Virus record (IMG/VR): IMGVR_UViG_3300029745_000175
Length of the DNA stretch: 14,664 bases
From: a virus
Lineage: Duplodnaviria; Heunggongvirae; Uroviricota; Caudoviricetes
Direction: 5' to 3' (one strand)
The notes under the pieces are model-generated. The model saw only the letters and a program-made list of their open reading frames with translations, was not told where the DNA came from and ran no database searches. Shown here in pieces: positions 9,594-12,682 of this stretch (position 1 is its first letter; the number at the start of each line of letters is the position of its first letter). Position numbers and translations under genes: made by a program.

Positions 9594-10621
<1,028 letters not shown>

Positions 10622-10734
10622 GGATATTTATCAGGATTTATCGGCTTCAAATCCCCGGATATGTTAAATCTTACCTCACCAGTGATGGGCACTGGCGGGA
10701 GGAGGATGTCAATCTGATAAACACAGAGGTGACT

Positions 10735-10995
10735 ATGGATTACACAAATCTACCAAAACAAACTTTTGCTGATTTAATCGCACTCAGGCAAGCAGTCGTA
10801 GCTCTAATCAACTTGTTGCCGGAGAAGGAAAAGGAATTAGTTAAAGCGCTTCTTAACAGAACTGCCGCCGATTTTTCATCATATCCACTGACAGATGACC
10901 TTGCGGACCTTCCTGAATTAATTGCAGCGTCCGCCATTAAGCTTACTGAAGAGATTTACCCTCCTCAAAAATCTTCACAAAATTCCTGCGAGTAA
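10735..10995 (+). CDS. Hypothetical protein, 86 aa, on the opposite strand inside the lysis cassette; no family recognised
   Basis: ATG at 10735 with AGAGG 5 nt upstream; protein-like helical sequence MDYTNLPKQTFADLIALRQAVVALINLLPEKEKELVKALLNRTAADFSSYPLTDDLADLPELIAASAIKLTEEIYPPQKSSQNSCE; strong terminator 20 nt after the TAA. The six-frame track starts it at GTG 10729. Confidence 0.6.
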   Translation: MDYTNLPKQTFADLIALRQAVVALINLLPEKEKELVKALLNRTAADFSSYPLTDDLADLPELIAASAIKLTEEIYPPQKSSQNSCE

Positions 10996-11494
10996 CTTCA
11001 ATGCAATAATCGTAAAACGCCGCAAACTGCTCATCGCGGCGTTTTTTTTCATCTTCAGAAGGGATCAGCACCGACAATTTTTTATTCAGATCAGCGACGC
11101 TGCCCTCCAGTTTTTCAATGGGCGATTCAATATCATCTTTTTCTGACCGCAATGCCGTCGGTGGCGTCTTCAGAGAACCAGTAATTCTTCCCGGTAGCTT
11201 TCCTTTGTAGGTTATCCACACATTCTGCGCCTCTAAAATTATGGGGCGCTTTTCCGGCGACTGCTCATCCCCTACACATAACCCGGCAGCAACATCCAGG
11301 AATACCTGTCTGATTCTCATTCTGGCTGCTGCCTCATAAAACTCCAGCGCGGCACCTTCAACACGGTCCAGCGAGATGTCCAGGTCAAAAATTTCACCGT
11401 CAAAGCGTTTTTTGTCCCGTAAGGCTACAGTTACCGCCACTTTATTCTCAAAATTGCGGACTCCTTTCACAACCAGTTCATAGTCTTGTGTCAT
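10943..11494 (-). CDS. YdfR-like protein (DUF1327-type N-terminal region by recollection) with a C-terminal extension of about 115 aa; 183 aa from ATG 11494, or 190 aa from 11515
   Basis: MTQDYELVVKGVRNFENKVAVTVALRDKKRFDGEIFDLDISLDRVEGAALEFYEAAARMRIRQVF resembles the short YdfR found between holin and endolysin in Qin-type prophages. The ATG at 11494 follows the holin stop with a GAGAG-type ribosome-binding site. The last 17 codons overlap the plus-strand gene. Confidence 0.6.
   Translation of the reverse strand: MTQDYELVVKGVRNFENKVAVTVALRDKKRFDGEIFDLDISLDRVEGAALEFYEAAARMRIRQVFLDVAAGLCVGDEQSPEKRPIILEAQNVWITYKGKLPGRITGSLKTPPTALRSEKDDIESPIEKLEGSVADLNKKLSVLIPSEDEKKRRDEQFAAFYDYCIEVTRRNFVKIFEEGKSLQ
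11014..11049 (+). terminator. Rho-independent terminator for the 86-aa plus-strand gene (AAAACGCCGC, 12-nt loop, GCGGCGTTTTTTTT); lies inside the coding region of the minus-strand YdfR-like ORF
   Basis: Stem 11014-11023 pairs with 11036-11045 and is followed by a run of eight T ending at 11049. Confidence 0.6.
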
Positions 11495-11498
11495 TGGA

Positions 11499-11714
11499 TT
11501 ACTCTCTTCTCGCAACCTTACGCCTGTCTTCTTTAATCTTGAAATAAAGGTTTGTCAGATACGTCAGCAGGCCAAAAACCAGACTACCCAGCACACCGAT
11601 TGCAGCCCACTGTGACGGAGTTACTTTATCGAGTAACTGCAATGCCCAGAAACCAGCATTACCAGCCGATGTGCCATAGGCGATACCTGTTGTTAACTTA
11701 TCCATTGATTTCAT
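11499..11714 (-). CDS. S: Class II holin / pinholin (phage 21 S-like, 71 aa) with dual-start motif MKSM
   Basis: [71 protein letters not shown]: two transmembrane segments (the first weakly hydrophobic, SAR-like), a charged C-terminus, and start codons at codons 1 and 4 as in S21 71/68. Confidence 0.9.
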
Positions 11715-11932
11715 ATCCTCACCCCGATGTACACAGATGGTGCAATATGTTTGAAAAGATCGGAGTCTATGGGTTAGTTTTTATAGCAAACGTTGTTCTC
11801 AACGGCGCTAAAAAACAGACACATTAAAAATGTGGGTAATTATTTTAAAAGAAAATCATATATTAAATAATAATACGAGATATGTTTTCATATTTAGTGT
11901 ACTGTATACGGCCATTTATACAGGAAAAGCCT

Positions 11933-12103
11933 ATGTCAGAACGTAAAGACTCAAAATCACGCCGTAATTATCTCGTTAAATGTTCCTGCCCAAACTGCAC
12001 CCAAGAGTCAGAACACAGTTTTTCAAGAGTACAAAAAGGTGCCCTTTTGATCTGCCCTCATTGCAACAAAGTATTCCAGACAAATCTTAAAGCTGTAGCT
12101 TGA
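11933..12103 (+). CDS. Small zinc-ribbon protein, 56 aa (CxxC ... CxxC), moron between holin and cspB
   Basis: MSERKDSKSRRNYLVKCSCPNCTQESEHSFSRVQKGALLICPHCNKVFQTNLKAVA; AGGAAA upstream of ATG 11933. The six-frame track extends it upstream to 11882, but that N-terminus lacks a ribosome-binding site. Confidence 0.55.
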   Translation: MSERKDSKSRRNYLVKCSCPNCTQESEHSFSRVQKGALLICPHCNKVFQTNLKAVA

Positions 12104-12162: not shown

Positions 12163-12188
12163 AAAAAACCCGCCTGAGCGGGTTTAAT
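12163..12188. terminator. Bidirectional intrinsic terminator between the zinc-ribbon gene (+) and cspB (-)
   Basis: AAAAAACCCGC ctga GCGGGTTT: stem 12168-12173 / 12178-12183, with an A-tract before and a T-tract after, so it reads as a terminator in both orientations. Confidence 0.55.
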
Positions 12189-12466: not shown

Positions 12467-12682
12467 TTAATCAGTAATTATGACATTTGCTGCTGCAGGA
12501 CCTTTAGCACCACTCTCTACAGAGAAGGTAACCTTTTGACCTTCAAATAAGGTTCGAAAATTATCATTCTGAATCGCAGAAAAATGCACAAACACATCTT
12601 TACTACCATCAACAGGAGAAATAAAGCCAAAACCTTTATCAGCGTTAAACCATTTTACTAAACCAGTCATTTTATTTGACAT
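12467..12682 (-). CDS. cspB: Cold shock protein, CspA family (CspB-like, 71 aa)
   Basis: [67 protein letters not shown]...; ATG at 12682; divergent from cspF with a 300-bp shared upstream region. Confidence 0.9.

Follow-up and report, generated by a model that had tools for sequence, protein, structure and literature searches.

An opposite-strand gene and its convergent partner in the lysis cassette of a Qin-like Escherichia coli prophage: a candidate mobile accessory cassette

The 14,664-nt stretch of DNA analysed here (the window; IMG/VR record IMGVR_UViG_3300029745_000175) is, by its sequence, part of a Qin-like lambdoid prophage of Escherichia coli. Lysis genes are encoded on its minus strand in the order S21-type holin, a 183-amino-acid (aa) DUF1327/YdfR-like open reading frame (ORF), endolysin and Rz. 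Between the DUF1327/YdfR-like ORF and the endolysin gene, an 86-aa gene (gene B) lies on the plus strand and converges on the C-terminal extension of the former (the A module). The 1.1-kb stretch around gene B is 100% identical to E. coli CFT073, S88, APEC O1 and many further strains. The favoured explanation, held with moderate confidence, is that A and B constitute a mobile two-gene cassette of the lambdoid late (lysis) operon, B being an accessory gene of the moron type with its own transcription, directed against that operon. The moron reading fits because the cassette is missing in close relatives, has a lower G+C content, brings its own Shine-Dalgarno sequence and terminator-like hairpin, and occupies a second late-operon slot.

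Gene B was found where a first-pass annotation of the window had placed it, with the AGAGG motif at the spacing from the ATG given there (Table 1). A word-indexed search recovered E. coli proteins only, at ≥85% identity, plus one truncated Salmonella match. An exhaustive HMMER scan of 1.8 billion representatives identified true distant relatives of 93 aa (P0020, 57% identical over the matched stretch) and 89 aa (P0021, 41%), with P0023, P0024 and P0025 as additional Salmonella members; P0019 (a TPR/CHAT repeat protein) and P0022 (a junk-like sequence) also matched but were discarded as spurious. Homologues from other E. coli and Salmonella lambdoid prophages (P0020, P0021, P0024 and P0025) share 41–57% identity with B. 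A Shine-Dalgarno sequence was present in every B allele, being TAAGGA at 7–8 nt ahead of the start in the homologues. A codon alignment of six alleles with 58–67% nucleotide identity contained 0 stops in the B frame versus 3–15 in each other frame; the alignment was protein-guided, which flatters the B frame, while the stop-codon count is independent of this guidance. All indels were multiples of three (21, 12, 9 and 6 nt). The proportions of synonymous (pS) and nonsynonymous (pN) differences were 0.57–0.70 and 0.26–0.36, respectively, giving a ratio of nonsynonymous to synonymous substitution rates (dN/dS) of 0.22–0.34 with dS saturated. This deep comparison was needed because dN/dS values in shallow clades rested on too few substitutions. 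As divergent relatives retain B and its frame alone is open, these comparisons indicate that it is a genuine protein-coding gene and not a chance frame, but one that is fast-evolving and dispensable.

Among 80 near-identical IMG/VR copies of B, 65 were intact, seven had an ATG to ACG change of the start codon, four were frameshifted and one contained a premature stop. Two natural knock-outs were also observed. An IS3-family insertion in E. coli GF66.2 (L007, 236–1449) has removed the first ~175 nt of the cassette region, and a Salmonella deletion allele (P0018) joins the first 25 B codons to sequence past the hairpin. E. coli was the sole carrier of B among species-representative genomes. Of 5426 complete E. 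coli genomes, 294 carried the cassette, as did eight deposited phage genomes, at least six of which have a named propagation host. Deposited carriers include 2H10, PhiR63_1, PhiR12_1, PhiR12_2, PhiR12_2_star, PhiR12_5 and PhiR5_1, with the propagation host named for all except 2H10, indicating that the cassette is compatible with phage growth.

The minus-strand ORF opposite B (10943–11494) encodes 183 aa from its ATG, as compared to 103 aa for YdfR of strain K-12 and 114 aa for the O157 form. The excess of about 80 aa over YdfR given in the first-pass annotation was borne out for the K-12 protein; relative to the O157 form the ORF is 69 aa longer. The ORF belongs to the DUF1327/YdfR family and lies directly after the holin gene, between the S21-type holin and the endolysin. 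Its match to PF07041 scored 140.7 bits (cutoff of 25) over profile positions 1–92 of 93, corresponding to residues 8–119 of a TTG-started ORF, and 60 of the first 72 residues were identical to K-12 YdfR. Variants of the ORF in 2H10, PhiR12_1, PhiR5_1, Stx1_14040 and strain MCJCHV-1 were 183, 169, 211, 263 and 296 aa long, respectively, and the segment common to all five was the A module (SEKDDIESRIEKLE...(KKRRDE)QFAAFYDYC...RN). In loci encoding the distant B homologues, A is either a separate 73-aa gene after Rz whose ATG overlaps the Rz stop codon (TAATG; L195, L199, L201, L203 and L205–L209) or is fused to a K-12-like YdfR (L198 and L210–L216). Fusions of other lengths occur in PhiR12, PhiR5, L198 and L212. 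A profile search for the A module produced matches in Escherichia, Shigella and Salmonella only, and dN/dS among standalone copies was 0.3–0.5. Because the module also exists as a separate gene, the extension is, on this comparison, a conserved module and not an accidental read-through.

It is very improbable that one of the two overlapping ORFs is spurious, whether B as a chance antisense ORF of a once-longer YdfR-family gene or the 71-aa extension as an accidental read-through following insertion. Such an explanation would draw on the disrupted B copies and on the Prokaryotic Genome Annotation Pipeline (PGAP), which labels 11159–11494 (in CFT073) and 1641–1976 of L008 (MCJCHV-1) as 'pseudogene, missing C-terminus'. 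It would also draw on records of Shiga-toxin (Stx) phages, which call a long minus-strand ORF antisense through plus-strand cargo; spurious calls therefore do happen at this locus. However, the two ORFs flagged by PGAP are intact, at 183 and 296 aa, the 183-aa ORF is intact in 55 of 67 IMG/VR copies with a locatable start, and long forms of the YdfR family are conserved (phrog_2091 and phrog_1085). The pseudogene label is probably artefactual, arising from comparison with short reference YdfR proteins. The 41–57% identity of B homologues, with in-frame indels, a Shine-Dalgarno sequence and a dN/dS of 0.2–0.34, and the homology of the extension to standalone, translationally coupled 73-aa genes evolving at a dN/dS of 0.3–0.5, both argue against spurious ORFs, such that this explanation appears largely refuted at the sequence level.

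The YdfR family as a whole is a mosaic with forms of 103–329 aa (phrog_406, 2735, 2091, 34145 and 1085). In locus L219 (2501–3130), the holin–endolysin slot contains a 116-aa A-like protein without DUF1327 followed by a separate 62-aa ORF (phrog_26186), equivalent to the C-terminus of the long form of 296 aa. At least four exchangeable segments thus make up the mosaic gene between holin and endolysin. An AlphaFold2 model of the 183-aa fusion was unusable, with a predicted local distance difference test (pLDDT) score of 46. The only literature found to mention YdfR was a 2026 RNase E study, reporting that residues 1–72 of the K-12 protein bind the N-terminal (catalytic) half of RNase E and that YdfR co-purifies RNA (PMC13232886).

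B converged on A in every context examined, with a 53-nt overlap in the E. coli clade, as first described for the window, or a 59-nt overlap in the other clades. Two slots in the late operon were occupied by the pair. Carriers in the slot between the DUF1327 gene and the endolysin gene (the S-R slot) were the window, PhiR12, PhiR5, 2H10, L198 and L210–L215. In Salmonella-type prophages (L195–L209), the pair is located after Rz and before the gene for the small terminase subunit (DUF1441 or Nu1). The first-pass annotation had proposed examining whether the insert co-occurs with the long ORF, and this held in one direction, as B was always accompanied by A but A was often present without B. The cassette was absent from the same site in the O157 short form. 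The insertion is positioned exactly at the YdfR stop codon, such that ...LKTPPLA followed by the stop becomes ...LKTPPTALRSEK... in the cassette-bearing form. The Qin prophage of K-12 has essQ, ydfR and rrrQ tightly packed and lacks the cassette; its homology to the window is interrupted at positions 10631 and 11289. The G+C content was 0.435 for the cassette (parts, 0.41–0.44) versus 0.49–0.51 for the flanks. For B alone it was 0.414, with 0.36 at third codon positions (GC3), as compared to 0.511 and 0.51 for the endolysin gene and 0.488 for the DUF1327 part, a modest difference. The patchy presence, the G+C content and the second slot all agree with the suggestion of the first-pass annotation that the 86-aa protein is an uncharacterised moron.

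Table 1. Coordinates of the A/B cassette, its predicted signals and the adjoining lysis genes in the window
Feature	Position	Strand	Description
Gene B, 86-aa acidic protein, pI 4.6	10735..10995	+	RefSeq WP_001306174.1 "hypothetical protein"; phrog_2572, function unknown
Shine-Dalgarno AGAGG of B	10725..10729	+	5-nt spacer before ATG at 10735
'A module', ~70-aa helical C-terminal extension fused in frame to DUF1327	10943..11158	-	LRSEKDD...KKRRDEQFAAFYDYC...RNFVKIFEEGKSLQ
DUF1327/YdfR-like N-terminal part, residues 1-112	11159..11494	-	Pfam PF07041, E 1.8e-41
Convergent 3' overlap of B and A module, 53 nt	10943..10995		homologous pairs 59 nt
A/B cassette DNA missing from short-YdfR form	10673..11153		leader stem-loop, B, hairpin and A module; junctions from L006 versus window
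Hairpin, candidate intrinsic terminator of B	11014..11049	+	10-bp stem, 12-nt loop, U8; begins 18 nt past B stop
Predicted 5' leader stem-loop	10668..10707	+	core CCAGTG-ATGGG-CACTGG; fold -24.9 kcal/mol for 10668-10740, z = -2.9
Candidate weak sigma-70 promoter (inferred only)	10637..10665	+	-35 TTTATC (10637-10642), 17-nt spacer, -10 TATGTT (10660-10665)
S21-type (class II) holin essQ	11499..11714	-	Pfam PF04971 P21-type holin, E 7e-34; RefSeq essQ; first lysis-cassette gene
Endolysin rrrQ	10088..10621	-	Pfam PF00959 phage lysozyme, E 3e-24; RefSeq rrrQ; late-operon gene downstream of A/B cassette
rzpQ	9594..10091	-	Rz of lysis cassette

Potential signals for independent transcription of B were examined on either side of the gene. 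In the hairpin downstream of B, the left arm (11014–11023) reads AAAACGCCGC and the right arm spans 11036–11045, with GCGGCGUUUU and four further U residues extending to 11049. The predicted fold had an energy of -14.6 kcal/mol (z = -2.7 versus shuffles), and the structure was missed by a simple terminator scan because its loop exceeds 8 nt. The first-pass annotation had described a strong intrinsic terminator inside the minus-strand ORF; the position was as described and the stem is GC-rich, while 'strong' is somewhat generous for a 12-nt loop. Read on the minus strand, the hairpin DNA codes for EKKRRDEQFAAF in the A module, its arms being formed by the codons for RR (CGCCGC) and AA (GCGGCG). 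The hairpin starts 18–22 nt past the B stop in every allele. In the L198 type, CGC CAC CAC pairs with GTG GCG (RR to RHH and AA to VA), and pairing is kept with one compensatory G-C to A-U change. The hairpin is absent from the 296-aa long form of L008, in which KRRDE is deleted. The hairpin thus belongs to the A module, and B might exploit it for termination.

Upstream of B, the ~76 nt adjoining the endolysin start are made up of a spacer (ATATTTATCAGGATTTATC...GGATATGTT) and then the stem-loop, an arrangement that recurs in many phages. The TTTATC and TATGTT hexamers and their spacing were kept across E. coli and Salmonella alleles while the sequence between them has diverged, and both hexamers, with unchanged spacing, are also found ahead of B in the Salmonella slot, which has no following endolysin gene. 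Among the matches listed, TATGTT was located exactly 17 nt past TTTATC in every cargo-bearing leader type, and the two leader types without TATGTT (26 loci) were both cargo-free. In every allele and cargo type, the stem-loop begins ~5–15 nt past the -10-like hexamer, with a partly different sequence. This pattern resembles a weak promoter with a stabilising 5' hairpin, a role that we infer from the conserved layout. Two further features of the leader were observed. Immediately upstream of the endolysin start codon, positions 10625–10644 comprise two tandem 10-nt direct repeats (ATTTATCAGG and ATTTATCGGC), which are kept even in Salmonella copies of the cassette without a following endolysin gene; they might serve as a protein-binding site or an UP-like element, or mark a recombination boundary. 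A second hairpin is predicted at 10708–10733, in which the CAGA of CAGAGG, containing the Shine-Dalgarno sequence, pairs with an upstream UCUG; this pairing hints at translational control.

Under the moron-type explanation, the B unit would start from the weak promoter at ~10637–10665, carry the 5' stem-loop leader and its own Shine-Dalgarno sequence, and end at the hairpin and U run of 11014–11049. B would be produced while late transcription is off, in the lysogen or in early infection. Late transcription of lambdoid phages is Q-antiterminated, and the Q-modified polymerase ignores terminators. After induction, such transcription would read through B, silence it and yield the YdfR-A protein, with A being made late only.

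A number of observations weigh against this explanation. The candidate promoter scores 7 of 12 consensus positions and was not reported by the consensus scan, in which no match reached ≥9/12. The O157-type short-form leaders, which are cargo-free, also keep TATGTT; the spacer might thus have been kept for translation of the endolysin or through descent. The 12-nt loop of the hairpin is atypically large as compared to the canonical ~3–8 nt, and in the Salmonella and L198 alleles the U run is weak. Covariation in the hairpin was non-significant, with one compensatory pair among seven distinct sequences that was matched in 245 of 500 shuffles. Hairpin and U8 also occur in the A-like gene of L219 in the absence of antisense cargo, and may therefore be a by-product of coding for KKRRDE..AAF. 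For B itself, dN/dS in shallow clades was 0.3–0.95, on few substitutions and with similar values for the antisense frame; about 15% of near-identical copies were disrupted through a lost start, a frameshift or a stop; and no fold or family match in Pfam, NCBIfam, PADLOC, PDB or BFVD hints at its function. Lastly, A is widespread without B, which also weakens the idea of an obligatory functional pair.

A functional pair, of an effector/antagonist or toxin-antitoxin-like kind, is a doubtful alternative. In such a pair, the overlap would enforce mutually exclusive expression, and lysogen-produced B would neutralise A/YdfR-type proteins or regulate them; these proteins may in turn influence RNase E and RNA decay in the course of lysis. 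B was never found without a convergent, overlapping A across two genomic slots and three sequence clades, and the geometry was kept (53–59 nt overlap, hairpin 18–22 nt past the B stop). Also in favour are the binding of the N-terminal domain of K-12 YdfR to the N-terminal half of RNase E and its co-purification with RNA (PMC13232886), and a precedent in phage Fc02, where the lysogen-strand gene of a strand-overlapping pair mediates exclusion (PMC9936078). Against this, A is common without B, in loci that have other antisense cargo, no such cargo or C-terminal domains on the same strand, neither protein matches toxin-antitoxin or defence profiles, and the linkage could reflect common descent of one cassette.

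Another rival, quite unlikely, is that the antisense transcript, rather than the protein, is what matters. Basal read-through into the genes for endolysin and Rz would then be damped, or the timing of lysis tuned, by convergent transcription or by a ~107-nt RNA duplex (10943–11049). The unit does sit between holin and endolysin, the predicted B transcript would be complementary to the 3' end of the YdfR-A mRNA, and interchangeable cargo is flanked by a conserved leader and hairpin. However, the B protein is under purifying selection with only its frame open, and in Salmonella-type prophages the cassette is placed after the complete set of lysis genes. No antisense cargo was found in K-12 Qin, in O157 forms or in ~40% of loci among the matches listed. 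It is also established for lambda that Q-antiterminated late transcription passes terminators. Gating of lysis timing through transcriptional interference, as put forward in the first-pass annotation, found no support as a conserved role of the cassette and appears unlikely from the gene orders, with the Salmonella-type A/B pair located downstream of holin, endolysin and Rz and with many lysis cassettes lacking the pair.

The moron-type explanation thus remains preferred, and the properties of the B protein were considered with respect to its potential function. B is acidic across all clades (charge of -5.5 in the window), has a polar N-terminus (MDYTNLPKQTFADL) and contains a single cysteine at residue 85. 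An AlphaFold2 model consisted of three helices and a disordered tail (pLDDT 70), and Foldseek searches with this model of PDB and BFVD returned nothing with an E-value below 0.5. Searches of Pfam, NCBIfam, PADLOC and PDB sequences with B, A and the fusion protein produced no match above threshold, only PHROGs of unknown function being matched, in line with the statement of the first-pass annotation that it recognised no family for the 86-aa protein or the C-terminal extension. ABATE and DUF1823 appeared only as weak sub-threshold matches, and the 'DUF1823' label in PhiR12 records probably stems from such a match. None of the three proteins matched toxin-antitoxin or defence profiles in PADLOC or Pfam, no similarity of B to Bor was detected in Pfam or PHROG, and no Rfam family reached significance. 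Literature searches found no report on expression or function of the B ORF, its PHROG or 'YdfR family protein', and no transcriptome or proteome data on B from a repressed prophage. The best guess is a lysogen-expressed modulator, for example a superinfection-exclusion factor or a factor binding host or phage proteins. As B was never found without A, it might act on A/YdfR-type proteins.

The closest known concept is the moron of lambdoid phages as defined by Juhala, Hendrix and colleagues, with the definition quoted in PMC2629481. Like lambdoid morons, the B cassette occurs in some close relatives and is missing from others, at a single late-operon site and in opposite orientation, and B has its own ribosome-binding site, a terminator-like hairpin and a G+C content below that of its surroundings. 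Unlike in established morons, its promoter is a candidate and its lysogen expression a prediction. The bor gene of lambda, the closest analogue by position, is situated between Rz and cos/Nu1, antisense to the late operon. The Salmonella-type A/B cassette occupies this Rz–terminase slot, and a Bor gene adjoins Rz in phage Perceval. In contrast to bor, B lacks Bor similarity, a signal peptide and a lipobox, is located between holin and endolysin in the window, and always overlaps a late-strand partner, with its putative terminator inside the A coding sequence. K-12 YdfR, encoded in Qin between essQ and rrrQ, shares with the minus-strand ORF of the window the position after the holin, the DUF1327 domain and the 60 of 72 N-terminal residues, but has a C-terminal helix in the place of the 71-aa A module. 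In the Pseudomonas phage Fc02, a small gene on the lysogenic strand overlaps a lytic gene on the opposite strand and has exclusion activity (PMC9936078). The B/A overlap is similar in layout, making Fc02 a loose precedent for mutually exclusive expression and superinfection exclusion; phage type and proteins are unrelated, and the Fc02 pair lies in the immunity region with measured expression and function (PMC9936078), whereas B/A lies in a lysis cassette and is known from sequence.

The S-R slot also carried genes other than B. In an arbitrary sample of 89 IMG/VR loci among the matches listed, all with the shared spacer and an S21-type holin, 35 had a short YdfR only and ~54 (~60%) had a plus-strand ORF. 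At least eight unrelated plus-strand ORFs occur behind one shared leader, starting 60–130 nt from the endolysin start, with sizes of 86 aa (B), 211/233 aa, 104 aa (orf6), 79 aa, ~90 aa, 87–91 aa, 98 aa and ~105 aa. The cargo proteins are mostly small and acidic, and phmmer and hhalign found no significant similarity among cargo types; the best pair, helices 1–2 of B versus the 79-aa ORF of Perceval, had P of ~0.02–0.08 and was not significant. Commonest among the matches listed was a 90-aa acidic ORF (MDNNTISLQELLDSISRLREDV...) unrelated to B, found in 25 loci (L224 and 24 others) with a slot of 691–692 nt; it has a GAGGA ribosome-binding site and overlaps a 114-aa YdfR by 35 nt. The 211/233-aa ORF of the Stx1a phage Stx1_14040 (L004, LC567819; 1209–1910, plus strand) is antisense to the late operon, 100% conserved in eight Stx1a/Stx2a phages and without a match in Pfam, PHROG, PADLOC or NCBIfam. 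A small hairpin with T7, belonging to this ORF, precedes the shared one. The ORF is left unannotated in the deposited Stx records, which call a 263-aa minus-strand ORF running antisense through it. Behind the same leader, Stx2 phage 86 (L222; 1929–2243, plus strand) carries the annotated orf6 (104 aa, phrog_1853) and Perceval (L223, OV696612; 1935–2174, plus strand) an unannotated 79-aa ORF (phrog_21218).

A bolder and rather speculative extension is that the endolysin-proximal spacer of S21-type cassettes is a dedicated antisense expression platform. It would combine a weak promoter, a stem-loop leader and a terminator from the neighbouring late gene, at least eight small proteins would have been swapped into it, and B would work with the A module or with the RNase E-binding YdfR domain. 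If true, this would be an unrecognised hotspot, inside the lysis cassette, of lysogen-expressed genes for exclusion, anti-defence or host modulation.

Gene B itself is no discovery, as it was already annotated as hypothetical and is included in PHROGs. New from the present comparisons are its coding status, its fixed partnership with A, the two late-operon slots and the endolysin-proximal site as a recurrent slot for antisense cargo. Lysis cassettes are usually viewed as compact and co-directional, and the gap between the DUF1327 gene and the endolysin gene is a recurrent landing site for opposite-strand accessory genes. If expressed in lysogens, the slot genes would be candidates for superinfection exclusion, anti-defence or host modulation in prophages of uropathogenic, avian-pathogenic and Shiga-toxin E. 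coli. Annotation could be corrected in two respects, the YdfR-A fusion being intact though labelled a pseudogene by PGAP, and Stx records calling antisense ORFs instead of the plus-strand cargo. Binding of YdfR to RNase E offers an experimental handle on the holin–endolysin gene and its partner B (PMC13232886).

Elsewhere in the window, the top terminator-like site from the scan was on the minus strand at 12166–12185, with an 8-bp stem, a 4-nt loop and a T run, and lies between a ynfU-like ORF (11882–12103, plus strand) and cspB (12467–12682). Cold-shock genes are abundant in this prophage region (cspI, cspB, cspF and ynfQ).

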